Source: an uncultured Rivularia sp.
GTDB taxonomy: Bacteria > Cyanobacteriota > Cyanobacteriia > Cyanobacteriales > Nostocaceae
DNA length: 64,000 nt
Direction: 5' to 3'
Assembly: GCA_963665115.1 (NCBI GenBank)
Contig: OY762007.1
Location: forward strand, 2,560,001-2,624,000
The translations under genes and the position numbers were made by a program. The notes below the pieces were generated by a model. The model did no database searches. It saw only the letters and a list, made by a program, of their open reading frames with translations, and had not been told where the DNA came from. Below are positions 36,720-50,280 of this stretch, piece after piece; positions within the stretch are counted from its first letter, which is position 1; every line of letters starts with the position of its first letter.

Positions 36720-38549
36720 TTATTCAATTATCAAATTAAAAGGCAAGCGAGCATATACATCTGAAGGGTCATTCATGTTTTGTAAAGCTGCTATTTCTAC
36801 TTGTAATTTATCAAATTCAACTGTTAAAGGATGGTTTGCTTTAAGCGGGCTTTTGTTAACTTTAAAAACACTTTGAGTCTCTTCTGAAACCTTACCAAAA
36901 AATCTTTCGCTAAAGCTGCTGGCTCTGGGATACTCTTCCAATTGCCATTTATCTCCTAATTTTGCTTCTGTCGCAGCATATTCAATCGCAGCATCTAAAC
37001 CGCCGATTTCATCCACCAAACCAATATCTTTCGCAGCTTTACCAGACCAAACTCTTCCTTGAGCAATTTCTGCAACCTTTTTTTCTGGTAAATTTCTACC
37101 TTTGGCTACTTTATTTAAGAACTTACCATAAATTCTATTGACGCTACTTTGAAAAATCGCTAATTCTGCTTCAGATTGGGGACGAGTCGTAGTTCCAATA
37201 TCAGCATATTTTCCGGTTTTGACGCTATCCCAAGTAATACCGTTGTCGTTGGCTAATTTTTGGAAATTGGGTATGCTTCCAAATACACCAATCGAACCCG
37301 TAATGGTATTTGGTTCGGCAAAAATGCGGTTTGAATCTACAGCTATCCAGTAACCACCAGATGCCGCAGTATCTCCCATTGATACCACAACTGGTTTAAC
37401 ATCGCGAGTCAGTCTAACTTCTCGCTGAATTATTTCGGATGCGGTAGCGCTACCACCCCCAGAATTCACCCGCAAAACCACCGCTTTGACATCTTTATCT
37501 TGACGCAGACGACGGAAAATTTTAGCAAAGCGGGTTCCTCCTATTTGTCCTGATTCTCCATTACCGTTGACAATACCACCTTCGGCATAAACTATGGCTA
37601 TTTGATTTTGGGAATTTTTACTTATATTGTTATCGGCAATAGTCGCGTATTCATTTAAATCAATTTGTTTAAAAGATTTTTCTTTACTGTCAGTTTTGGT
37701 TAACTTTTTGAGTTCGGTTACTACTTCGTCAAAATAAACTACCTTATCTACCAAACGGTTGGTTTTAGCTTCATCAGCTTCCAAAATACCTTTACTATCG
37801 GCGATCGCCTGCAATTGTTGGGGAGTCATTTTGCGGCTTTTACCTACAGTACCGCGCCATTCAGACCATAAATCGTCCAATAATTTCTGAATTTGCTCGC
37901 GGTTTTCTGGACTCAATTGTTTCAAAATCAGCGGTTCAACTGCACCTTTAAACTTTCCTACTCGCACAATCTGTACGCCAACGCCAAACTTTTCTAAAGC
38001 TCCAGCCAAAAACATCGGTTGCGAACTCAAACCATTAATTTCCATAGCTCCGTAAGGATTAACCATAACGGTATCGGCTACCGAACTGAGATAATATTCT
38101 TTTTCACCCCATCCGACACCGTAAGCAACAACTTTTTTACCCGAATCGCGAAACTTCGAGAGTGCTTGACGAATTTCTTTGAGAGTTGCAAAACCCGTGC
38201 TTCCTGCTCCCGAAGCATCCCTTGCATCTAAATAAACCCCAACAATTTGCTTGTCAGTGCGGGCTTTTTCCAAAGCGTCCAAAACCGAACGTAGCGTCAT
38301 CTGCTTTTTATAATTACCCGAAAGTGCTTGCTGTAAAACCAAACTGGAATCGGGTTTCCCATCAGTAATTTGAGTTGATAAATCGAACACCAACATCGAA
38401 GAATCCTTTACTTTCGGTGTCGAATCCGTAGAAGAAGCAGCAGCAAAAATTAGCAAGAAAAATCCTACAGTACTTATACCTCCAAAAATAAATAGTCCTA
38501 ATAAACTTCCAATCAAACTCGCAAAAGTTTGTTTAATAAAATTACGCAT
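36720..38549 (-). CDS. sppA: Signal peptide peptidase SppA (long form)
   Basis: VGKFKGAVEP, LRVNSGGGS, SMGDTAASGGYW, ITGSIGVFG, QGRVWSG. Confidence 0.95.
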   Translation of the reverse strand: MRNFIKQTFASLIGSLLGLFIFGGISTVGFFLLIFAAASSTDSTPKVKDSSMLVFDLSTQITDGKPDSSLVLQQALSGNYKKQMTLRSVLDALEKARTDKQIVGVYLDARDASGAGSTGFATLKEIRQALSKFRDSGKKVVAYGVGWGEKEYYLSSVADTVMVNPYGAMEINGLSSQPMFLAGALEKFGVGVQIVRVGKFKGAVEPLILKQLSPENREQIQKLLDDLWSEWRGTVGKSRKMTPQQLQAIADSKGILEADEAKTNRLVDKVVYFDEVVTELKKLTKTDSKEKSFKQIDLNEYATIADNNISKNSQNQIAIVYAEGGIVNGNGESGQIGGTRFAKIFRRLRQDKDVKAVVLRVNSGGGSATASEIIQREVRLTRDVKPVVVSMGDTAASGGYWIAVDSNRIFAEPNTITGSIGVFGSIPNFQKLANDNGITWDSVKTGKYADIGTTTRPQSEAELAIFQSSVNRIYGKFLNKVAKGRNLPEKKVAEIAQGRVWSGKAAKDIGLVDEIGGLDAAIEYAATEAKLGDKWQLEEYPRASSFSERFFGKVSEETQSVFKVNKSPLKANHPLTVEFDKLQVEIAALQNMNDPSDVYARLPFNLIIE

Positions 38550-38759
38550 ATTATCCCCGGTTCTACTAATAAGTATTTACACTTAACCTACTTATGACCT
38601 TTGTAGTTGCACTACCGCGCAACTACCCTTCTTGAAGTTATCCTTTGTATTTCACTTATATTTTATAAATCATCCTTATGTATTTACCTTATATTTCTAA
38701 TGTCCTCTAAAAATATTGTTCCTAACACCGAGAAAATGCTCAATAATTGAGATATAAAA

Positions 38760-39813
38760 TTATTCAACTGTTTTAAGTAAACTATCAGAATGTTGAAGTT
38801 GTTCTAGTGTAGCGTTACCAGTACAGAATAGTACGGTGCTAATTTCCGCAATTAAAACTTTTGCTAGATCGTAAAGTGTAGCCTCAGATGAAGTTGCAGC
38901 TTGTAAAAACGGCATTGCTAACCCGGCGATATCCGCACCTAACGCGATCGCCTTGGGCCACATCCCCACCATGACGCAAACCTCCCGAAGCAATCAAAGG
39001 AATATCGGGTGCAATGTTACGAATTCCGGTGATGCAGTCAGCCGTCGGTACGCCCCAATCGGCAAAGGTTCTACCCAAACGCCGCTGTAAAACATTATCA
39101 GCACGCTCGCTTTCCACCAAAGCCCAAGAAGTACCACCCGCACCAGCTACATCAATTGCAGCAACTCCTGCACCAATCAACTTATAAGCCATCTTCGCTG
39201 AGATTCCATTTCCAACTTCCTTAACAATTACTGGCACTGGTAATTTTTCGCATAAAGTTTCGATTTTGTCCAGCACACCCCGAAAATTAGTATCACCTTT
39301 GGGCTGAATGCATTCTTGTAGCGGGTTGAGATGCAAAATCAGCGCATCGGCTTCCAAAATGTCAACGACTCGCAGACATTCATCTAAACCGTAATTGTAA
39401 TTAAGTTGAATCGCACCCAAATTAGCAAACAATAATATATCGGGAGCATATTTACGAACTGCAAAAGTATCGGAAACATCTGGATTTTCTACCGCAACTC
39501 GTTGAGAGCCCACACCCATAGCCAACCGGTAATGTTGAGCAATTTTTGCTAAGCGATAATTAATAGTTTTAGCTTCTTGGGTTCCCCCAGTCATCGACGA
39601 AATTAATAACGGCGCATTCATAGGTTTCCCTAAAAATGTAGTACTAATATCAATTTCCGAGCGGTCAATTTCCGGTAAACAACAATGGTCAAAATGATAT
39701 CTTTCCAAACCATTAGTAGTTTGACGAAACTGAACATCTTCCTCTAGACAGATGCGGATGTGGTCAGCTTTGCGAGATTCGGTTGCGGCTGAATAATTTG
39801 TAGAAATCTTCAC
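38760..39813 (-). CDS. fni: Type 2 isopentenyl-diphosphate isomerase (+1 frameshift near 38960)
   Basis: [46 protein letters not shown]; continues as KAIALGAD in the second frame. Confidence 0.92.
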
Positions 39814-40055
39814 GGTGGAGACTGGGATTAAAGTTAACTGCTATTTTCTCAGTCTCTAGTATTTTGGGATTTTTTTGAGTTAAATAGGAACTTTTGATTA
39901 CTTTATTAACAATTCGCACAACTTTTTTGTATTTGGGAATTGGGGATTACTTGTAGGGTGTGTTACGGCTACGAGATATTTTCGCTCATAGGTAATAAAT
40001 TTGCGAATGCCGTGACTGGCTCGAATATTTTGCAGACGAAGAAGATATATAATAG

Positions 40056-40084
40056 AAAATAGTCATAATGTACAAAATAGTCAT
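40056..40084 (+). promoter_or_regulatory. Putative TA autoregulatory operator (AAAATAGTCAT direct repeat x2)
   Basis: Copies at 40056-40066 and 40074-40084, just after TATAAT (40048-40053) and before the antitoxin start. Confidence 0.5.
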
Positions 40085-40096
40085 TTTTTGATTTAT

Positions 40097-40360
40097 ATGC
40101 AAAATTACTCGCTTACAGATGCTCGAAATAAACATGGTGAGGTTTTTGATAAAGCCGCTGTTGAACCAGTTTTGTTAACAAAACAATCCCGTCCGAGTCA
40201 TGTAATCATGTCAGCAGAAACTTACCATAAATTAGTTGAGAGATTGGAAGAATTAGAAGATATGGTATTAGCTCAAGAAGCTAATGTTGCTCTTAGTAAT
40301 TCGGAAATGGTGGGGAGTAAAGCTTTTACAAATGCGTTAGAAAATTTAGCAAATGGCTAA
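40097..40360 (+). CDS. Phd/YefM-family antitoxin
   Basis: SLTDARNK, EPVLLTK..RP..VIMS.E.Y..L.E.LEELED. Confidence 0.9.
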   Translation: MQNYSLTDARNKHGEVFDKAAVEPVLLTKQSRPSHVIMSAETYHKLVERLEELEDMVLAQEANVALSNSEMVGSKAFTNALENLANG

Positions 40361-40633
40361 ACTTGATGGTTTAGAAACCGTTCTTGATTTTTTAAACGGT
40401 TTGCAACCGAAAATTGCAGCACAGATTGCGAAAAAGTCTTGGCTTTAAATGTAAATCCTTTACCAACTGATAGTAAATCACTATCTGGTTACGAAAAATA
40501 TTATCGTGTTGATAGCGGTGAATATAGAATAGTTTACAGATTTTCACCTGATGAAGACTTAGTTGAAATCATTTTAGTTGGGAAACGAAACGATGATGAT
40601 GTATATAAACGATTGAAGCGTTTGTTGGGATAG
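40353..40633 (+). CDS. RelE/ParE-family toxin (-1 frameshift in the A-run near 40433)
   Basis: MAKLDGLETVLDFL...IAKK joins LALNVNPLP..SK.L.GY..YYRVDSGEYRIVY..VGKR; ATG overlaps the antitoxin end. Confidence 0.85.
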
Positions 40634-40861
40634 TTATAGTAATTATGCAATGGTTAAATAATTTATAAAATTGCATCTAAATCATGTTTAGAAGAAGAGA
40701 AAAAGTTAAGTAACGTAACGAGCGATCGCCACATCCACAAACACCGCAATCACTTACTCCGTGTTCCTCTGCGCTTACCTTAGCGTGACTCTGCGTTAAA
40801 GTTGAAAATTTATCTAATTCAAAATGTTACCTTAAATAATGTCTTTCGGTGATTTAACTAA

Positions 40862-42251
40862 ATGCTGCTAACCATCTCCACCACTCACCAACCAGCAACC
40901 GATTTGGGTTATCTTCTACACAAACACCCAAGTCGCTGTCAATCGTTTTCGCTTTCTTTTGGGGAAGCACACGTTTTCTACCCGGAAGCAAACAACGAAC
41001 AATGCACCGCAGCACTTTTATTAGATATCAATCCAGTAAAATTAGTTAGAAAAAGAACTTTGACGCTGGATGCTTATGTAAACGATCGCCCTTATGTGGC
41101 TTCTTCATTTTTCAGCGTGGCAATATCTCAAGTATTTGGTACTGCTTTAGGTGGGCGTTGCAAGGATAAACCGGAGTTAGTTGAAACTCCCATTCCGTTA
41201 GTAGCAAAAATATCGGTTTTACCTTGTCATGGGGGTGAACATTTTTTACGAGAATTGTTTGAACCTTTGGGTTATCAGGTAGCTTTGCAGAATTACCCTT
41301 TAGATGAAACTTTCCCGGAATGGGGAGAAAGTAAATATTTCACAGTTGAATTAGAAAATACCTTACCGCTTTCGCTTTTACTCAGCCATCTTTATGTTTT
41401 GATACCAGTTTTAGATAACAATAAACATTACTGGGTAGACGAAGAAGAAGTAGAAAAATTATTGCGTCACGGGGAAGGTTGGTTAAAGGAACATCCATTA
41501 AAAGAAGAGATTACCAAACGCTATTTAAAACGTCAGTATCGTTTGACTCGCTCTGCTTTAGCACAACTAACAGAACCCAGCGAAACCAGATCCAGATAGT
41601 GCTGAAGAAAATCATGATAAAGAAGAAGCAGCGGTAGAAAAACCATTAAGTTTAAATCAGCAGCGTTTGAATTCAGTAGTAGAAGTTTTAAAGAAAAATA
41701 ATGCCAAAAAAATCGTTGATTTAGGTTGCGGACAAGGTAATTTACTAAAAAAACTTTTAAAAGACAGTTATTTTGAAAAAATTACCGGGGTAGACGTTTC
41801 CTATCGCTCTTTAGAAATTACCAAAGAAAGATTAGACAGATTGCATTTACCACGCAACCAATGGGAAAAATTACAATTAATTCAAAGTGGTTTAACTTAT
41901 AGAGATAAACGGATTACCGGGTATGATGCAGCTGCGATAATTGAAGTAATAGAACATTTAGATTTACCCAGATTAAGCGCTTTTGAAAGAGTTTTATTTG
42001 AATTTGCCAAACCGCAAACCGTAATAGTTACCACACCAAACATTGAATATAACGTTAAATTTGAAAGCCTACCAGCGGGCACATTACGTCATAAAGATCA
42101 CCGTTTTGAATGGACAAGAGCAGAATTCCAAAAATGGGCAAAAGAAGTAGGAGAAAACTTTAGTTATAGCGTGGAATTTCAAAGTGTAGGTGAAGAAGAA
42201 TTAGAAGTAGGTTCCCCCACGCAAATGGCAGTTTTTTCAGTTATCAATTAA
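40862..42251 (+). CDS. hen1: Bacterial Hen1: 3'-terminal RNA 2'-O-methyltransferase and ligase activator (+1 frameshift near 41584)
   Basis: MLLTIST..PATDLGYLLHKHP, YVNDRPYVASS; C-domain DLGCGQG, EVIEH, TTPN.EYN, RHKDHRFEW. Confidence 0.93.
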
Positions 42252-42431
42252 CAATTAAGGTTCGTAGTAAGGGCTTTAGCCCTCTTCATGCAACCAACGT
42301 TAATGATAATACATATAAATCGTGTAGAGACGTAGCAGTGCTACGTCTCCCCGTATTTTAAGTTGTATAGAGAATTTAATAAAATATATTACGCTCCCAG
42401 AAGAAGGGCTGAAGCCCTTACTACAAACAAA

Positions 42432-42881
42432 ATGCAAGCAATCATATTTATCGGTATCCAAGGAGCGGGTAAGTCAACTTTTTACCGCGAATACTTTGTT
42501 GATACCCATATCAGAATTAATCTTGATATGCTCAAAACACGTCATCGAGAAAAACTAATATTTGAAGCTTGTTTGTCAGCAAAACAGCGATTAGTTATAG
42601 ATAACACCAATCCAACTGTAGAAGATAGGAAACGGTATATTACACCAGCTAAAGCACAAGGTTTTCAAGTGTTAGCATATTATTTTAATTCAGAATTGGT
42701 CGATTGCAAACAACGCAACAGCCAACGCTCTGGCAAAAAAGTAATTCCCTTAGTAGGAATATTATCAACTTATAAAAAACTGGTTTTACCTAGTTACACC
42801 GAAGGATTTGATGCAATATACTCGGTAAAAACCCGTCCAGATTATTCATTTATTCTTGAGGAGTGGAACCGTGAAATTTGA
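42432..42881 (+). CDS. Stand-alone P-loop kinase of the polynucleotide kinase (AAA_33) type
   Basis: GIQGAGKSTF, INLDML, VIDNTN...R, RN..R lid, EGFD; start at ATG 42432 because the upstream extension is repeat DNA. Confidence 0.85.
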   Translation: MQAIIFIGIQGAGKSTFYREYFVDTHIRINLDMLKTRHREKLIFEACLSAKQRLVIDNTNPTVEDRKRYITPAKAQGFQVLAYYFNSELVDCKQRNSQRSGKKVIPLVGILSTYKKLVLPSYTEGFDAIYSVKTRPDYSFILEEWNREI

Positions 42882-43629
42882 TGAACTTGATACTAAAATG
42901 CGGGTATTTGAAACCGCTCACGATTATTGCGTATTACCGGGAATTTATATAGTAGCCAGATTGGATGGACGGGGTTTTACTCGTTTAACAAAAGACGTGC
43001 ATAAATTTAAAGCACCCTATGACGAACGTTTTCGAGACTATATGTTAGATACCGTAGAACATTTAATGAATAGCGGCTTTGATGTTACTTACGGTTACAC
43101 TCAGAGCGATGAAATCTCCTTATTATTTAACTTAGAAGATGAAACATTTAATCGCAAAACTCGTAAAATAAACTCAGTTTTAGCAGGAGAAGCTAGCGCT
43201 AAATTTTCATTACTTTTAGGAGATATAGGTTGTTTTGACTGTCGGATTTCTCAACTTGCGAATATTCAACAAGTAATAGACTATTTCCGCTGGAGACAGC
43301 AAGATGCTCATCGGAATTCGCTCAATTCTCACAGTTATTGGTGTTTGCGTGGAGATGGAGAAACAGCCCGTAAAGCTACTAGTATTATGGAGGGTTTATC
43401 AGTAGCCGATAAAAACGAATTATTATTTAAACATGGAGTTAATTTTAACGAATTACCCAATTGGCAAAAACGCGGAATAGGTTTGTATTGGGAAGAATAC
43501 GAAAAAGAAGGATATAACCCAATTAAAGATGAAACTGTTTTTACAACGAGACGACGGATAAAAAGGGAATTGGATTTACCGATGAAGGATGATTATAGTG
43601 AATTTATTCGAGGATTATTTGCTAGTTGA
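42871..43629 (+). CDS. Thg1-like protein (tRNA-His guanylyltransferase / 3'-5' RNA polymerase family)
   Basis: RLDGRGF, YTQSDEIS, FDCR, YFRWRQ.DA.RN, GVNFN.LP.WQKRG; GTG start after GAGGAG, overlapping the kinase stop. Confidence 0.93.
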   Translation: MKFDELDTKMRVFETAHDYCVLPGIYIVARLDGRGFTRLTKDVHKFKAPYDERFRDYMLDTVEHLMNSGFDVTYGYTQSDEISLLFNLEDETFNRKTRKINSVLAGEASAKFSLLLGDIGCFDCRISQLANIQQVIDYFRWRQQDAHRNSLNSHSYWCLRGDGETARKATSIMEGLSVADKNELLFKHGVNFNELPNWQKRGIGLYWEEYEKEGYNPIKDETVFTTRRRIKRELDLPMKDDYSEFIRGLFAS

Positions 43630-43708
43630 AATTATCGCAATCGTATATGTTTTTGTATTTGACATATTTAGAAACCCGATTTTTTGAACAAACCGGGTTT
43701 ATTTATTC

Positions 43709-45139
43709 TCATGAGTGATTTATAAATAAAGTTTTAAATCTCATGTCATTGCGAATATTTTCAAAAAATGACTCGTTATTTGCTTTTTCGCGGAACTCTT
43801 CAGGATTAATATATATAGCAATTTGTAGATTTTCAACTGCTAAATCTATTTTATTTAAAGCCACATAACAACAAGCTTTATCATATAAAATATTTGGTTG
43901 GTTTGGACGCAAATCTAAAGCTTTGTCGAAAAATAAAATTGCTTCCTCATTTCTTTCTAATTTCTGGAGTACCGAACCATAAATTTTCCATGCTAGATCG
44001 TAATTTGGATTAATTTCTATTGCTTTATTTAAGGCTATAATTGCATCTTCGTTCCGTGCTAGTTTATGAAGTGTGTAACCCCTAAAGCAATGTGCTACAT
44101 AGTTTTGTGAGTCAATTTCTATTACTTTATCAAAAACTGCAATTGCATCTTCATATTTTTCTGATTTACCTAGTGTTGTTCCTAGCCGATTCCGAGCTTG
44201 GCAATTTTGAGGTTCTAATTTTATCACCTTTTTAAAGGTATTAATTGTATCTTCTAACTGTCCTAAACGATATAGGATGTTAGCCTTTTTATATAAAGCA
44301 TCTGGGGAATTCGGCTGAATCTCTATTGCTTGCTCAAAACAAGCTAAAGCGGATTCTAATTTTCCTAAATCTAATAATGCAACACCTTTGTGATACCAAG
44401 CTAAGTATAAATTTGGTTTGAACTCGATTGCTTTATCAAAGCAAATAATTGCATCTTCTAATTTTCCCAAGTTATCTAGCGTATAACCTTTCTCATACCA
44501 AGCATTTGCATCATTAGGATGTATTTGTATTACTTTTTCAAAAGAAGTTAAAGCGGATTCTAATTTTCCTAAATCAAATAACGCAATACCTCTGTGATAC
44601 CAAGCTAAGTCATAATCTGGTTTGAACTTGATTGCTTTATCAAAGCACATAACTGCATTTTCTAATTTCCCTAATTCATACAGTGTCAAACCTTTCTCAT
44701 ACCAAGCTTTAGGATAATTAGGCTTTATTAGAATGAGTTTTTCAAAACTAATCAATGCTGCCTCTAATTTTTTTTGTTCAAAAAGCACATCACCCCGTAA
44801 TAGCAAAGCTTTGAGGTAATCTGGCTGAATTTCTATAGCTATATCTATGCTGGAGAGTGCTTCTTGTAATTTTCCGAGTTTAAATAAAGTTACCCCCCGC
44901 TCATACCAAACATAAGGAGAATCCGATGAATGTGCGATCGCCCTTTCAAAATCAATCAGCGCTTCTTCAAAATCTTCTAAACCTTGTAGTGCCATTCCCC
45001 TAAAGACAAGAGCATCATAAGCATTTGGCTCAGATTCTAAAATTTGATTGTAAATTAATAATGCCTCTTCAAAGCGCTTTAATTCGATGAGAGTTACCCC
45101 TAAATGATGCAACCCTTCCCAACTATCAGATAAATTCAT
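43709..45139 (-). CDS. TPR-repeat protein
   Basis: About 12 tandem 34-aa TPR units; C-terminal YDKACCY. Confidence 0.92.
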   Translation of the reverse strand: MNLSDSWEGLHHLGVTLIELKRFEEALLIYNQILESEPNAYDALVFRGMALQGLEDFEEALIDFERAIAHSSDSPYVWYERGVTLFKLGKLQEALSSIDIAIEIQPDYLKALLLRGDVLFEQKKLEAALISFEKLILIKPNYPKAWYEKGLTLYELGKLENAVMCFDKAIKFKPDYDLAWYHRGIALFDLGKLESALTSFEKVIQIHPNDANAWYEKGYTLDNLGKLEDAIICFDKAIEFKPNLYLAWYHKGVALLDLGKLESALACFEQAIEIQPNSPDALYKKANILYRLGQLEDTINTFKKVIKLEPQNCQARNRLGTTLGKSEKYEDAIAVFDKVIEIDSQNYVAHCFRGYTLHKLARNEDAIIALNKAIEINPNYDLAWKIYGSVLQKLERNEEAILFFDKALDLRPNQPNILYDKACCYVALNKIDLAVENLQIAIYINPEEFREKANNESFFENIRNDMRFKTLFINHS

Positions 45140-45281
45140 TTTAGATTTTAAAGTGTCTTATGAAAAAAGAAGTAAATTTAATTGAATTTATTTATTTATA
45201 ACAGAATTTAAATGTATTTATTACAATGCTAAAACTGCTTAATTAAAAAAATATATATTCTTAACTTTAAGGTATAAAAAA

Positions 45282-45617
45282 ATGAATTATTCAGAAGATA
45301 AATACAGAATATGGCTCGAACTTGATGAATATAATATCGAATTAGATAAAAGTTTTGATGAAGAGTACTGTAATGCCATAATATCTTCCCCCAATAGTGT
45401 AGATATTGGTCTAAATGTTTGGAGAGAAAAATACTTTAAAAAAAATATTAATAATCTTGATTTGATAGAGAAAGAGTTTACGACATTGCCAGATATTATT
45501 GTGAAGAATTATCAAGCATCTTCGATTAGGGAAGCTATGATTAACTTAATCGAAAACTTAATCGAAAAACAAAACTTGATTGAGGGAAGAGTTTTTTGTA
45601 TTTTACCTGGCGACTAG
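45282..45617 (+). CDS. Hypothetical acidic protein (possibly immunity-like)
   Basis: 111-aa AT-rich ORF; stop lies inside a dispersed repeat. Confidence 0.55.
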   Translation: MNYSEDKYRIWLELDEYNIELDKSFDEEYCNAIISSPNSVDIGLNVWREKYFKKNINNLDLIEKEFTTLPDIIVKNYQASSIREAMINLIENLIEKQNLIEGRVFCILPGD

Positions 45618-45714
45618 AAGTCGCGGCTACACAAACAAAACCCCTCTCTACCTCTTACCTCCGCGCCCTCCGCGCTTCTGCGGTTATTATATTCTTATTA
45701 TTCTAAAACAAACT

Positions 45715-48309
45715 ATGAAAATAACTATCCCCGAACTATCTTTAGTAACGCTCATCGGTGCATCTGGTTCCGGTAAATCAAGCTTTGCCAAAAAACACTT
45801 CCAACCTTTTGAAGTCATATCTTCAGATTTTTGTCGCGGATTGGTTTCCAACGACGAAAACAGCCAGGATGCTTCCCGCGATGCTTTCGACGTACTCCAT
45901 TACATCGCTCAAAAACGTTTAGCAGCAGCCAAACTAACAGTAATTGACGCAACCAACGTTCAAAAAGAAGACAGAAAATATTATGTAAACTTAGCAAGAG
46001 AATATCATTGTTTACCAGTTGCTATAGTTTTAAATTTACCCGAAAACGTCTGCCATCAACGCAACCAACAACGTCCAAGTAGACAATTTGGTTCTTACGT
46101 AGTTCAGCGTCACGTGCAAAATTTAAGACGTTCTTTACGCGGTTTACAAAAAGAAGGTTTTCGCTATGTTTACGTGCTTAATTCAATCGAAGAAATCGCA
46201 GCCGTCACAATCGAACGTCAACCATTATGGAACAATCGTAAACACGAACACGGTCCATTTGATATTATTGGTGATATTCACGGTTGCTGCGACGAATTAG
46301 AATTACTATTAGAAAAACTAGGCTACCAAAAATCAGTTAACAATAATAACTCTACCCCCTCTACCCCCTCTACCCCCTCTCCTCTCTACTCCCACCCCCA
46401 AGGACGAAAAGCCCTATTCCTCGGCGATTTAGTAGATAGAGGTCCCCGGATTCTTGATACTGTCAAACTTGTAAAAAACATGGTTCAATCGGGTACGGCG
46501 ATTTGCGTTCCCGGTAATCATGAAAACAAACTTTTGCGCCAAATTCGCGGTAAAAAAGTTAAGCTGAATCACGGTTTAGAGCAAACTGTCGCCGAAATCG
46601 AAGCTTTATCTGAGGAAGTAAAAGAACCATTACTTAAAGAATTAGAACAGTTTATCGACTCTTTGGTAAGTCATTTTGTCCTAGATGATGGACGCTTGGT
46701 AGTAGCTCATGCGGGAATGCGTGAAGAAATGCAGGGAAGGGGTTCGGGAAAAGTGCGGAGTTTTGCGCTGTATGGTGAAACCACCGGCGAAATCGATGAA
46801 TTCGGCTTACCCGTGCGCTACGATTGGGCTTCCGAATATCGCGGTGAAGCGATGGTGGTTTACGGACATACACCAGTACCGGAAGCGGAATGGTTGAATA
46901 ATACGATTGATATTGATACGGGTTGCGTGTTTGGGGGTAAATTAACTGCTTTGCGCTATCCGGAAAGGGAGTTGATTAGCGTAGAAGCAGCGAAGGTTTA
47001 CTGCGAACCCGTGAAACCTTTAGGTAATATAACAGGTGCGGGAATCAGTTCCCAGCAGCAGTTAGATGATGTTTTAAATATTGATGATGTCTTGGGTAAG
47101 CGGATTATTAATGTCCGTCTGCAAAACAAGATTACCATTCGCGAAGAAAATTCCATTGCTGCTTTGGAAGTGATGAGTCGGTTTGCAGCAAATCCCAAAT
47201 GGTTGATTTACCTTCCTCCTACAATGTCACCCGTGGAAACTTCTCAACTACCCGGATATTTGGAGCATCCAAAACAAGCTTTTGCTTATTATAAAAACCA
47301 AGGAGTTACTGAAGTTATTTGCGAAGAAAAACACATGGGTTCGCGAGCGGTTGTTATTGTATGTCGCGACGAAGAAGCTGTTAAAAGAAAGTTTGGAATT
47401 GAGAATGAAGGAATCGGCATTTGCTACACTCGCACCGGAAGACGCTTTTTTAATAATTCGGAATTAGAAGTAGAATTTCTTGCAGAAGTAAATAAAGCGC
47501 TGAGTGAAAGTGACTTTTGGTCAAGATTAAATACTGATTGGGTATGTCTCGATTGCGAACTGATGCCCTGGTCTGCAAAAGCTCAAGGATTAATCCGAAG
47601 TCAATATGCAGCAGTCGGTGCAGCCTCCCGTCCGGCTTTAAGTAATGCCATAAATTTACTTGAGCAAGCCAGTCAAAACGGTATTGAAGTTAACTCTTTA
47701 CTTAGTAAATTTCAACAGCGTCAGGAAATGGCAAATCAATATGTAGACGCTTACCGTCGTTACTGCTGGGAAGTTAACGATATTTCCGATATCAAACTTG
47801 CACCATTTCATATTTTAGCTACAGAAGGTGCGGTACATATCGATAAAAATCATCGCTGGCATATGGAACAAGCTGCTATGTTAGAAAAAGCCAATCCCGA
47901 ACTATTAATGGCAACTAATTATAAAATTATAGATTTAAACGACCCCAGCAGCGAAGCAGAAGGAACCCATTGGTGGGAAGAAATGACAACTAAAGGTGGT
48001 GAAGGAATGGTTGTCAAACCGATGGAATTTATCGTTAAAGGTAAGCGTGGAATTTTGCAACCAGCAGTCAAATGTCGCGGTAAAGAATATCTGCGGATAA
48101 TTTACGGAGCGGAATATACAACTGAAGAGAACTTAGAACGTCTGCGGAAACGCGGGTTATCTTTGAAACGTTCCTTAGCGATGCGGGAATTTGCTTTAGG
48201 TGTGGAAGCACTGGAAAGATTTGTTGCAGAAGCGCCATTGAGAAGAGTGCATGAGTGCGTTTTTGGGGTTTTGGCTTTGGAGAGTGAAGCGGTTGATCCG
48301 AGGTTGTAA
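45715..48309 (+). CDS. pnkp: Bacterial polynucleotide kinase-phosphatase-ligase Pnkp
   Basis: Kinase GASGSGKS/DATN; metallophosphoesterase GDIHG, GDLVDRG, GNHE; ligase EEKHMGSR, GEGMVVKP; C-terminal ESEAVDPRL. Confidence 0.95.
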   Translation: MKITIPELSLVTLIGASGSGKSSFAKKHFQPFEVISSDFCRGLVSNDENSQDASRDAFDVLHYIAQKRLAAAKLTVIDATNVQKEDRKYYVNLAREYHCLPVAIVLNLPENVCHQRNQQRPSRQFGSYVVQRHVQNLRRSLRGLQKEGFRYVYVLNSIEEIAAVTIERQPLWNNRKHEHGPFDIIGDIHGCCDELELLLEKLGYQKSVNNNNSTPSTPSTPSPLYSHPQGRKALFLGDLVDRGPRILDTVKLVKNMVQSGTAICVPGNHENKLLRQIRGKKVKLNHGLEQTVAEIEALSEEVKEPLLKELEQFIDSLVSHFVLDDGRLVVAHAGMREEMQGRGSGKVRSFALYGETTGEIDEFGLPVRYDWASEYRGEAMVVYGHTPVPEAEWLNNTIDIDTGCVFGGKLTALRYPERELISVEAAKVYCEPVKPLGNITGAGISSQQQLDDVLNIDDVLGKRIINVRLQNKITIREENSIAALEVMSRFAANPKWLIYLPPTMSPVETSQLPGYLEHPKQAFAYYKNQGVTEVICEEKHMGSRAVVIVCRDEEAVKRKFGIENEGIGICYTRTGRRFFNNSELEVEFLAEVNKALSESDFWSRLNTDWVCLDCELMPWSAKAQGLIRSQYAAVGAASRPALSNAINLLEQASQNGIEVNSLLSKFQQRQEMANQYVDAYRRYCWEVNDISDIKLAPFHILATEGAVHIDKNHRWHMEQAAMLEKANPELLMATNYKIIDLNDPSSEAEGTHWWEEMTTKGGEGMVVKPMEFIVKGKRGILQPAVKCRGKEYLRIIYGAEYTTEENLERLRKRGLSLKRSLAMREFALGVEALERFVAEAPLRRVHECVFGVLALESEAVDPRL

Positions 48310-48461
48310 GGGGATAAATTTCTTGTGATGTAGGCATTTTGCTTGCTCATGAGAATACCTTTACTGTAAAGTTATAAACAAAACGATTTAAAGCATCTTG
48401 CGAAATTTGAGTTGGACATTTAAACTCTAATCCATATGGATTTGGGGAGAGTGGAAGTATT

Positions 48462-49935
48462 GTGACTGTACTCGCAGGGCGCTATGAAATTACTAAGAAA
48501 TTAGATGAAGGTGGTTTTGGAATAACTTTTCTTGCTAGGGATACTATGCAACCTAGTCAACCCCTGTGTGTAGTTAAGAAATTAAGTCATAATCAAACTA
48601 ATCCAGAGTTTATAAAGCGAATAACTGAAAAATTTAAACAAGAAGCTAATATTTTAGAAAAATTGGGAATACATACCCAGATACCCCAGTTACTGGCCTA
48701 TTTTCAGCAACATAGTAATTTCTATATTGTTCAAGAATTTATTGAAGGGCAAAATATAGAAAAAGAAATCTTAGGAAACAAACGAAATGAAGTTTATGTT
48801 CGTAATTTGTTACAAGAAGTTTTAAAAGTATTATCATTCGTACATCAGCAAGGAGTAATTCATTTAGATATTAAACCCGCAAACCTGATGCGTAGTCGAA
48901 AAGATGGCAGAATTTTTCTAATTGACTTTGGGGCAGTCAAAGAATTGATGTTAAATACCCAAGGAAAATTCGCTTCAAGTGCGCGAACAAGTTTACCGAT
49001 TGGTACCCCTGGATATATGCCAACCGAACAGAGTTTAGGTCAACCTCGTTTTGCAAGTGATGTTTATGCAGTCGGAATGACTGCGATCGCAGCTTTGAGT
49101 GGAGTTCAACCTCACGAATTAGAAGAAGATCCTCATACAGGTGAAGTCATTTGGTCGAACCAAGCGCAAGTCAGCAAGGATTTAGCAGAAGTTATTACCA
49201 AAATGGTGCGCCGTCATCATAGTCTGCGCTACACCTCAGCAGAAGATGCATTACAAGCCTTAAACTCATTGCGACCCTTTAACACCTTATGTTTCAACAC
49301 CACAACAAACATCATCAAAGCCGCAAAGACAACCAGCGCCGACACCAGTAGTGTCAAAGGTATTGCAACAAAAACCACTAAATTTACCAAGCCAACTAAC
49401 GCCGAAGCCTTTAAAAACACTATTAACACCAACAATTCCCTCACATAACACACAGAATGACTTCCCTCGTCGGAAAATACTTGGATTTATTTTAGCTGGA
49501 GCCAGCTTAATTGCTGTTGGTTTGGTACCCATAATATCAAATAGTTCTATTAAAGCAAGGATATACGAAGGTAAATCTTATGCTGGTTCTATGAATCGTA
49601 CCCAACAAGCTTACTACGTTGAAAATAATAAATTCGCTTCAAATATTAAACACTTGAGACTAGGTATCAAATTGAAAAAAAATGATTACAGTGTTAAAAC
49701 CGTGCCGCAATCCAATGATAAAAGTGTAATGAATATCGTTCAAGCTAAGGACAAAAAGCTTAAGAGTTATATTGGGTTAGTTTATTTCAGAAAATTAGGT
49801 GATCGAGATGACTTGCTTGCCAAACTTTGCGAAACCAGCCAATCTTTATCTAAACCCCCTGTAATGCCCAAATTAGCTAAAAATGCGAAATATGATGATA
49901 TAAAATGTCCGTCGGGTTTTAAAGCTATCCTATAG
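48462..49935 (+). CDS. Ser/Thr kinase with TM helix and C-terminal pilin-like (Pilin_GH) domain (+1 frameshift near 49280)
   Basis: HLDIKPAN, DFG, GTPGY; second frame has a TM helix and EGKSY.GSMNR.QQAYY.E. Confidence 0.8.
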
Positions 49936-49971
49936 CTGTATACTTTACCTGTTAATTAACTAAAAAATTCA

Positions 49972-50280
49972 ATGGAAATTCTACCCAAACAATGGGCGGA
50001 TATTCAACCGGATGAAATTCACGAGACAACTGATGGATTACTAGTTTCCTTCAGCCCAGAACAAATTAAACTAGGATTAAAGTACGACCAAAATAGCAAA
50101 CATCTAAAAGCAATTGAAAAAGGAATTGTTCCACCACGAGGTAATATCGGACTTGTACCTTCCCAAGAAGTAGATTTCGATTTGAAATCAAAAGTGTTGG
50201 GTAAAGGAGGCGATAAACGTTTTCACGCACAATTTATAGATGAAGTATTACACTTCCCCGGTTTGGTAACAGAACATTAA
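49972..50280 (+). CDS. Hypothetical protein; candidate RelE/BECR-like RNase toxin domain
   Basis: KGIVPPRG..G...K.KVLGKGGD.RF...F....H resembles polymorphic toxin tip domains (from memory). Confidence 0.5.
   Translation: MEILPKQWADIQPDEIHETTDGLLVSFSPEQIKLGLKYDQNSKHLKAIEKGIVPPRGNIGLVPSQEVDFDLKSKVLGKGGDKRFHAQFIDEVLHFPGLVTEH

Follow-up and report, generated by a model that had tools for sequence, protein, structure and literature searches.

A kinase and Thg1-like protein pair as a recurrent, optional expansion of a hen1-pnkp RNA-repair locus in an uncultured Rivularia

The present study deals with a locus in a stretch of 64,000 nucleotides (the window; G000:C1:2560001-2624000) from the 8.69 Mb genome of an uncultured Rivularia sp., which is available as a single contig. 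On the + strand, hen1, a small kinase gene, a gene for a Thg1-like protein (TLP), an open reading frame (ORF) of 111 amino acids (aa) and pnkp follow one another, and a TPR gene lies on the minus strand. The locus extends a known RNA-repair cassette, that of Pnkp and Hen1, by a kinase-TLP pair which has been predicted previously, and this extension is both recurrent and optional. With a probability of roughly 55%, the locus can be read as an RNA end-repair operon with two branches: Pnkp/Hen1 would rejoin cut loops, and the kinase-TLP pair is predicted from sequences and structure models to restore 5' ends that have been trimmed in base-paired RNA. This reading draws on genomic and structural inference, and all the activities at this locus are predicted ones.

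In the first step, which is established for the family, Pnkp would heal 5'-OH and cyclic-phosphate ends, Hen1 would methylate and Pnkp/Hen1 would seal. In the second step, damage or decay may leave a recessed 5'-OH in a stem, for example in the 5'-trimmed acceptor stem of a tRNA, and such an end would be a poor substrate for the kinase of Pnkp because that kinase needs a single-stranded end; the small kinase, of mammalian-PNKP type, would phosphorylate it. In the third step, established for other TLPs in vitro, the TLP would activate the 5'-phosphate and copy the 3' overhang backwards, by which the stem would be restored. Since a tRNA 5' end rebuilt in this manner would need no ligation, the pair could persist without Pnkp/Hen1. 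A recessed 5' end opposite a 3' overhang is, by analogy, the geometry shared by the preference of the mammalian PNKP kinase (mPNK) and by TLP extension. In Anabaena, hen1-pnkP is induced late in translational stress (PMC8421152; papers are cited by PMC identifier, for the passages covered).

The small kinase resembles the kinase domain of mammalian PNKP. Among solved structures, mouse PNKP was found to be its best match, both with the single sequence (E 1e-12; C. thermocellum Pnk 5e-5) and in a profile search (E 2e-20 vs 3e-13 for C. thermocellum Pnk). The structure model (predicted local distance difference test score 94) superposed on 1yj5 with Z 19.2 and a root-mean-square deviation (rmsd) of 1.4 over 138 residues; the corresponding values were Z 18.0 and rmsd 2.4 for C. 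thermocellum Pnk, and Z 18.6 and 13.7 for fungal tRNA-splicing kinases and T4. Residues G8, G13, K14, D32, D57, T59 and N60 are invariant in 100/100 homologs, the residue equivalent to R403 is R/K in 99 and position 116 is K/R in 96. The catalytic Asp and the DNTN motif are 25 residues apart in 94 of the 100 homologs; going by the alignment, mouse PNKP has the same spacing (D396-D421). The spacing is 40 in the Pnkp of this locus, whose kinase domain gives a gap-free alignment with C. thermocellum Pnk (E 1e-73). The mPNK favours a recessed 5'-OH with a 3' overhang, which has been attributed to a truncated helix-loop-helix (alpha9-loop-alpha10) (PMC2764422); C. thermocellum Pnk, a bacterial Pnkp kinase, requires a single-stranded 5'-OH (PMC3902929). 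The typing thus predicts that the seemingly redundant second kinase would prefer recessed 5'-OH ends beyond the reach of the Pnkp kinase. A search of the Atlas with the kinase returned AAA_33 clusters only.

Among PDB entries, the TLP has its best match in the M. acetivorans TLP (5axk, E 3e-31). Its residues R30, D32, S79, D80, E81 and R148 are conserved and map to R28, D30, S74, D75, E76 and R147 of BtTLP (PMC3701042). TLPs are known to favour 5'-truncated tRNAs (PMC3061083) and to extend simple duplexes (PMC11404450). The TLPs of phages and plasmids were all less than 60% identical to it, the best among the matches listed being 35% and 53%.

That the kinase hands its product to the TLP, as the initial annotation proposed, is supported by a conserved overlap of the two genes, by natural fusions and by the matching substrate geometry. 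The reading frames overlap by 11 nt and a ribosome-binding-like GAGGAG site lies within the last kinase codons, in agreement with the translational coupling proposed earlier. A scan of GTDB genomes, of which the best 80 of 498 loci were analysed, placed the kinase beside the TLP in 64/80, in nine or more phyla, with the 11 nt overlap as the commonest spacing. In-frame kinase-TLP fusions occur in P0070 (41 members, three of them named Akkermansia sp.) and P0039 (2 members), which supports one pathway for the pair; these proteins are also convenient single-chain targets for biochemistry. Prediction of a kinase-TLP complex gave a score of 0.00 against a mark of 0.32 and speaks neither way. Two further candidate fusions, each from a single cluster, join TLP with RNA_ligase (P0004, 1 member) and RlaP with a kinase (P0093, 5 members). 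Other candidates were rejected. The TLP-Pnkp 'fusions' P0001, P0009 and P0010 consist of a partial TLP and the middle of Pnkp on single contigs, and were taken as deletions or misassemblies that only hint at adjacency. The Hen1-kinase protein P0013 and the kinase-TLP protein P0045, with one member each, have garbled junctions and were taken as frameshift read-through; the methyltransferase of P0014 is not Hen1.

The arrangement is more than chance, because hen1 was seen close to the Thg1 match in all the same-genus genomes that have one and because the gene order is found again outside the genus and in other phyla. Within the genus, a Thg1 match was found in 18/26 genomes, and in 18/18 of these hen1 precedes it by about 2 kb, in the same orientation and on one contig. 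In the family, 200 genomes were drawn evenly, and since kin are not independent the counts are descriptive and not tests. TLP was present in 55 of them, a Hen1_L match in 93 and both in 42. In 24 of these 42 genomes (12 genera) the TLP has an undamaged hen1 no more than 3.5 kb upstream and on its own strand; of the rest, 2 have hen1 remnants there, 5 (one genus) carry kinase-TLP 10-34 kb upstream, 3 have the two far apart and 8 on different contigs. No TLP adjoins an intact hen1 in 69/93 family genomes with hen1. A phylum sample of 400 Cyanobacteriota had TLP in 18 genomes, with 2 linked among those fetched; five were close same-genus hits (g55), of which 3/5 were fetched. An impression from the first 60 relatives that the arrangement is limited to one genus (0/7 TLPs outside the genus linked) was overturned by the phylum and family samples and the GTDB loci.

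Among the 80 GTDB loci, hen1 and pnkp were both near the TLP in 18 (10 Cyanobacteriota, 7 Planctomycetota and 1 Bacillota) and either of them in 24; the set is skewed towards linked loci, because the query, a piece of planctomycete-type TLP, had been taken from a TLP-Pnkp chimera. The arrangement thus recurs in three phyla, with a changed order, kinase-TLP-hen1-pnkp, in the Bacillota locus (L109). No linkage was seen among 8 Acidobacteriota, 8 Myxococcota, 6 Bacteroidota and 3 Chloroflexota loci, some on short contigs. In Nostoc (L059/L062) and Gemmataceae (L053/L055) the four genes form tight operons, with spacings of -14 to +14 nt. In one genus (L181-L184), a conserved unannotated ORF of ~300 aa was observed 6 nt before a kinase-TLP pair which itself stands 10-13 kb before hen1-pnkp.

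The link of the pair with hen1/pnkp is nevertheless optional. A random set of 250 Planctomycetota contained TLP in 16, Hen1 in 32 and both in 7 genomes; in 6 of these 7 the genes are unlinked, being far apart or on different contigs, and the seventh (G577) is ambiguous, with the TLP 4.6 kb from a broken hen1, so that linkage amounts to 0-1/32 random planctomycete hen1 loci. The 120 Myxococcota had TLP in 9, Hen1 in 11 and both in 3, none on one contig, and no TLP was found in 10 metagenome hen1-pnkp loci near L109. Decay proceeds in both directions. In G720 an undamaged kinase-TLP pair stands between what is left of hen1 and pnkp, in G818 and L064 it adjoins a hen1 remnant, and in G010 and G021 it is found with a broken pnkp; in G013, hen1 and the kinase are retained and the TLP is deleted. 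The combined pathway of the initial annotation thus finds no support in an obligatory, four-part form, as most hen1-pnkp loci are without the pair, the pair survives hen1/pnkp decay and the modules are mostly apart in planctomycetes.

A tree of Hen1 and Pnkp from 55 loci follows the phyla, and linked and unlinked loci intermingle in each of its cyanobacterial, planctomycete and Bacillota clades (all with support 1.0); the Hen1/Pnkp proteins of the host cluster with named Nostocales cyanobacteria. A single clade of linked TLPs was rejected (approximately unbiased (AU) test, p 4e-11, 12 changes) in a TLP tree of 72/120 rows, from which 48 long-branch, near-duplicate or ambiguous rows had been dropped after the first tree was seen. 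The deep nodes of this tree are weak, and the linkage may have been gained several times, or once and then lost many times.

The hen1-pnkp junction is a slot for optional repair accessory modules, with kinase-TLP among them. Pfam analysis of 43/55 ORFs between hen1 and pnkp and of 13 neighbours identified RlaP, RNA ligase with HD-kinase, NIF phosphatase, R2K ATP-grasp and HEAT proteins, whether or not kinase-TLP is also there; RlaP occurs together with kinase-TLP in 5 loci (L057, L084, L103, L110 and L109). Unlinked kinase-TLP pairs can adjoin RtcB (L047) or RNA ligase and RlaP (L049). Bacillota-type hen1-pnkp was also seen to be preceded by a T4 Rnl1-type ligase with HD-kinase, or by TROVE genes (L131, L133, L135, L137). 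Elsewhere in the host genome, tblastn located more RNA-repair homologs on G000:C1, namely two RtcB-like genes, an RNA ligase and HD-kinase pair, an RlaP-like gene, a TROVE-like gene and another RNA ligase (8446590-8447768, 2246049-2246825, 2407083-2409427, 1374409-1374843, 3063192-3064469, 4074848-4075807).

Several observations weigh against the two-branch reading. The kinase is missing beside the TLP in 16/80 GTDB loci (some cut by contig ends), in 4/24 linked family loci and in L072. The fold alone scarcely separates the kinase types, given Z 19.2 for mPNK, 18.6 for a fungal tRNA-splicing kinase and 18.0 for C. thermocellum Pnk. Moreover, mPNK acts on DNA (PMC2764422); its substrate contact R395 is Leu here (as in 89/100 homologs) and R432 is variable (R in 54/100). 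The Asp-to-DNTN stretch may be the truncated alpha9-loop-alpha10 of that paper, an equation which is our own. In the TLP, Ala48 stands where BtTLP has its activation lysine K43 (human K44), a column with A/S in 99/120 homologs and K in 9, and neighbouring Lys41 is conserved in 105/120; in BtTLP, K43 contacts ATP and matters for activation with ATP, not with GTP (PMC3701042). Finally, the TPR insert probably cuts pnkp off from hen1, kinase and TLP in this genome.

A doubtful but possible alternative is sequential gap repair, as modelled in the initial annotation: after phosphorylation by the kinase, the TLP would extend across a stem gap until it reaches the upstream strand, and the remaining nick would be methylated and sealed by Pnkp/Hen1. 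The four proteins would then form a gap-filling pathway, in which a duplex-reading kinase and a reverse polymerase might restore the nucleotides and Pnkp/Hen1, or the 5' end activated by the TLP, might seal and immunise the junction. If true, it would be a sequence-restoring RNA repair similar to base-excision repair and would give a bacterial 3'-5' polymerase its first task in vivo. This model is favoured by the use of the same hen1-pnkp insertion point in two phyla whose Hen1/Pnkp form separate clades, by the reordered Bacillota locus, and by the retention of the TLP in the operon after loss of the small kinase. The TLP also stands near other ligases, in P0004 (one single-contig protein), L049 and L047. 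RtcB requires a 5'-OH, and therefore ligase neighbours imply no hand-off. RlaP, which is proposed to restore lost nucleotides before ligation (PMC12776372), takes the same slot. On the other hand, the two known nucleotide-excising ribotoxins shorten the 5' half from its 3' end at the anticodon (PMC12776372), where there is no Watson-Crick template, and a templated polymerase would be unable to rebuild gaps of the anticodon loop. The kinase-TLP and hen1/pnkp modules also dissociate repeatedly. Further, an added nucleoside triphosphate leaves a 5'-triphosphate and ligase needs a monophosphate, so that the product of the TLP would need its triphosphate trimmed before ligation. Among the passages covered, removal of pyrophosphate is in print only for eukaryotic Thg1 (PMC6471195).

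It is improbable that the pair is a passenger which landed once or twice in a stress-induced operon and does its own house-keeping, such as tRNA 5' quality control after mis-cleavage by RNase P, with no shared damage signal. Unrelated cargo does collect in the TLP-pnkp gap of this genus (the TPR gene here, and peptidase S58, RTX protein or IS605 in other species), and linkage outside Nostocales is low (0-1/32 planctomycete and 0/11 Myxococcota hen1 genomes, 0/10 metagenome loci near L109). Against this, the identified junction or flanking genes in Planctomycetota, Bacillota and Chloroflexota are mostly of RNA-repair families, the genes stand only -4 to 14 nt apart in two phyla and linked TLPs were rejected as one clade, though losses alone could produce the last result.

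The chance that the kinase and TLP act on recessed 5' ends of DNA appears to be small. Of the solved structures, that of a DNA repair kinase is closest to the kinase here, and some kinase-Thg1 neighbourhoods include DNA-alkylation and DinB genes (PMC2904730 supplement), whereas the neighbours here are RNA-repair genes and the TLP substrates characterised in the papers covered are RNA (PMC11404450, PMC6471195, PMC3061083). Least likely of all is that the TLP only restores a lost G-1 of tRNA-His: although C73 would template it and TLPs manage G-1 addition in vitro (PMC6471195), BtTLP is 5-160-fold more efficient on truncated tRNAs (PMC3061083), RNase P leaves a 5'-phosphate so that a coupled kinase would be needless, 145/200 family genomes are without TLP, and G-1 is already genomic. 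The tRNA-His gene at G000:C1:8270722-8270795(-) carries C73 and has G directly before it, a genomic G-1 as the initial annotation gave it for most bacteria, and the TLP is therefore not required for His maturation. A separate array of 11 tRNA genes was noticed at G000:C1:2710034-2711460, ~100 kb from the locus; by eye it holds a tRNA-His-like gene (~2711359-2711459, G-1, C73) and further tRNA-like genes split by a short palindromic repeat and missed by ARAGORN.

As to the locus itself (Table 1), the four gene identities and their order on the + strand, as first annotated, were borne out by the ORFs and by Pfam/NCBIfam profile matches. Each of the four genes is single-copy in the genome and all are under purifying selection, the dN/dS ratio against up to 14 same-genus loci being 0.06-0.14 for the kinase, 0.03-0.11 for the TLP and 0.04-0.18 for Hen1/Pnkp segments. 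PADLOC gave no match for the kinase, TLP or Pnkp. Hen1 has the motifs DLGCGQG, IEVIEH and RHKDHRFEW, and Pnkp those of kinase, phosphatase and ligase, including KHMGSR. An in-frame tandem 9-nt repeat was observed within pnkp at 46350-46385 of the window, in the kinase-distal linker of the phosphatase region; it is a high-copy repeat in the genome.

Table 1. Features of the locus, in positions of the window.
Feature	Position	Strand	Description
hen1	40862..42251	+	Ligase-activating N-half (Hen1_L) and 2'-O-methyltransferase C-half; PF12623, E 6e-117; TIGR04074 on both halves
Dispersed-repeat insertion	42260..42428		24-nt inverted arms around a palindrome scoring as a terminator-like hairpin; outside the system
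P-loop polynucleotide 5'-kinase-like protein	42432..42881	+	Stand-alone, 149 aa; PF13671 (AAA_33); Walker A, Asp32, DNTN 57-60, Arg39, Lys115/116
TLP	42871..43629	+	252 aa from a GTG start, 11-nt overlap with the kinase stop; PF04446 and PF14413
TPR-repeat protein gene	43709..45139	-	Convergent with TLP; genus-specific insert
111-aa ORF	45282..45617	+	Often eroded in relatives; outside the conserved core
pnkp	45715..48309	+	Kinase, metallophosphoesterase and ligase, 864 aa from ATG; TIGR04075, 1464.7 bits vs cut-off 750

In this assembly, one extra base at 41583 splits hen1 into two ORFs. Four public runs (X1-X4) of one study, of which X1 may be the source of the assembly, were compared over 38500-50000. 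The base is found in X1 only and is missing from X2, X3 and X4; the X2/X3 contigs show 0 other letter differences over 38500-42282, and X4 is more distant. The frameshift is likely an error of this assembly, because the base is confined to X1 and an undivided Hen1 of 461-481 aa is found in 14/14 fetched same-genus loci; the reading of hen1 as a pseudogene was rejected, the splitting base being absent from 3/4 runs. Single extra bases seen only in X1 also break genes at 38955 (idi) and 49275 (a Ser/Thr kinase-pilin-like gene, where X4 has no coverage), and other apparent pseudogenes of this assembly may likewise be errors. Upstream of hen1, at 40097-40633 (+), the window carries a Phd/YefM antitoxin gene and then a gene for a RelE-like toxin, frameshifted near 40430; being present in X1-X3 and not in X4, this frameshift is likely a real inactivation in this strain. 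Intact Phd/YefM-RelE pairs stand upstream of hen1 in L015 and L017.

The distance from hen1 to pnkp is 3,463 nt, with four ORFs between, one of them antisense, and 2,085 nt of it separates TLP from pnkp. The hen1-kinase spacer measures 180 nt here and 11-24 nt in several loci of other genera; its repeats have 44 and 339 near-full-length copies in the genome. The order of the initial annotation stands for hen1, kinase, TLP and pnkp. The TPR gene, an antisense insert of this genus, and the 111-aa ORF, outside the conserved core, were both rejected as members of the system on the gene content between hen1 and pnkp in other genera and on the same-genus comparison. An orthologue of the TPR gene (60-90%) occurs in 11/14 fetched same-genus loci; the hen1-pnkp interval of the other genera examined showed none. 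The 111-aa ORF has partial homologs (54-82%) in 12/14 same-genus loci and no Pfam, NCBIfam, PADLOC or Atlas match. The TPR and other genes of the TLP-pnkp gap are cargo. Given the terminator-like hairpin in the hen1-kinase spacer and the antisense TPR gene, the locus in this genome is probably not one transcript; it is pnkp that the TPR gene would separate from the other three genes. A promoter scan did not exceed its shuffled controls (23 vs 27.6).

Natural substrates of bacterial TLPs are acknowledged as unresolved in the literature (PMC3061083, PMC6471195), and Thg1 and RlaP have been listed as nucleotide-restoring enzymes of jumbo phages (PMC7824862). An operon of TLP and ribotoxin repair in heterocyst-forming cyanobacteria provides a concrete setting for finding the role of the TLP, and with this arrangement the function of reverse polymerases in bacteria becomes open to direct testing; if the four proteins act in series, templated repair of gapped RNA would follow. 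The literature search returned no paper linking the kinase-Thg1 pair to Pnkp/Hen1, within a coverage that left out Burroughs & Aravind 2016, the likeliest place of a prior description, and the supplement of the RlaP preprint. One phage paper names both tRNAHis guanylyltransferase and Pnkp, with distant ORF numbers.

The pair itself, as the initial annotation guessed, is already on record. Anantharaman, Iyer and Aravind predicted in 2010 the polynucleotide kinase -> Thg1 operon, its rationale and a Thg1-RNA ligase neighbourhood (PMC2904730). Their operon is similar to ours in having a P-loop kinase gene directly upstream of Thg1, in assigning to the kinase the supply of the needed 5'-phosphate and in an RNA-ligase neighbour (Coprococcus). 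It differs in that neither text nor supplement mentions Hen1, and the supplement has no mention of Pnkp/PNK either; in the passages covered, the kinase is not typed as mammalian-PNKP-like and fusions are unmentioned. In case of RlaP (PF10127; PMC12776372), the likeness consists in an accessory of RNA-ligase operons, proposed as nucleotide restorer, in the same slot, whereas RlaP extends 3'-OH ends and frequently adds an incorrect base, and a TLP copies a template onto 5' ends. BtTLP and MaTLP (PMC3061083, PMC3701042; PDB 4kgk, 5axk) share with the TLP of this locus the Thg1 and Thg1C domains, the metal site (D32/D80/E81), the genomic G-1 and the lack of the eukaryotic HINNLYN motif; the TLP here belongs to a distant clade (E 3e-31, 4e-20), has Ala for Lys43 and is coupled to a kinase. 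The kinase domain of mammalian PNKP (PDB 1yj5) is matched by the small kinase in a near-gapless fold, the Asp base, DNTN, the R403-equivalent and the surface-2 basic residue. The small kinase, which stands alone without HAD phosphatase or FHA domain and has not kept R395, may act like the PNKP kinase domain, yet it is not a PNKP. The bacterial Pnkp/Hen1 system is represented here by a full three-domain Pnkp and a two-domain Hen1 with their catalytic motifs and with hen1 before pnkp; in contrast to the direct adjacency common in other genomes, a second kinase and a TLP stand between the two genes and, in this genus, extra cargo before pnkp.

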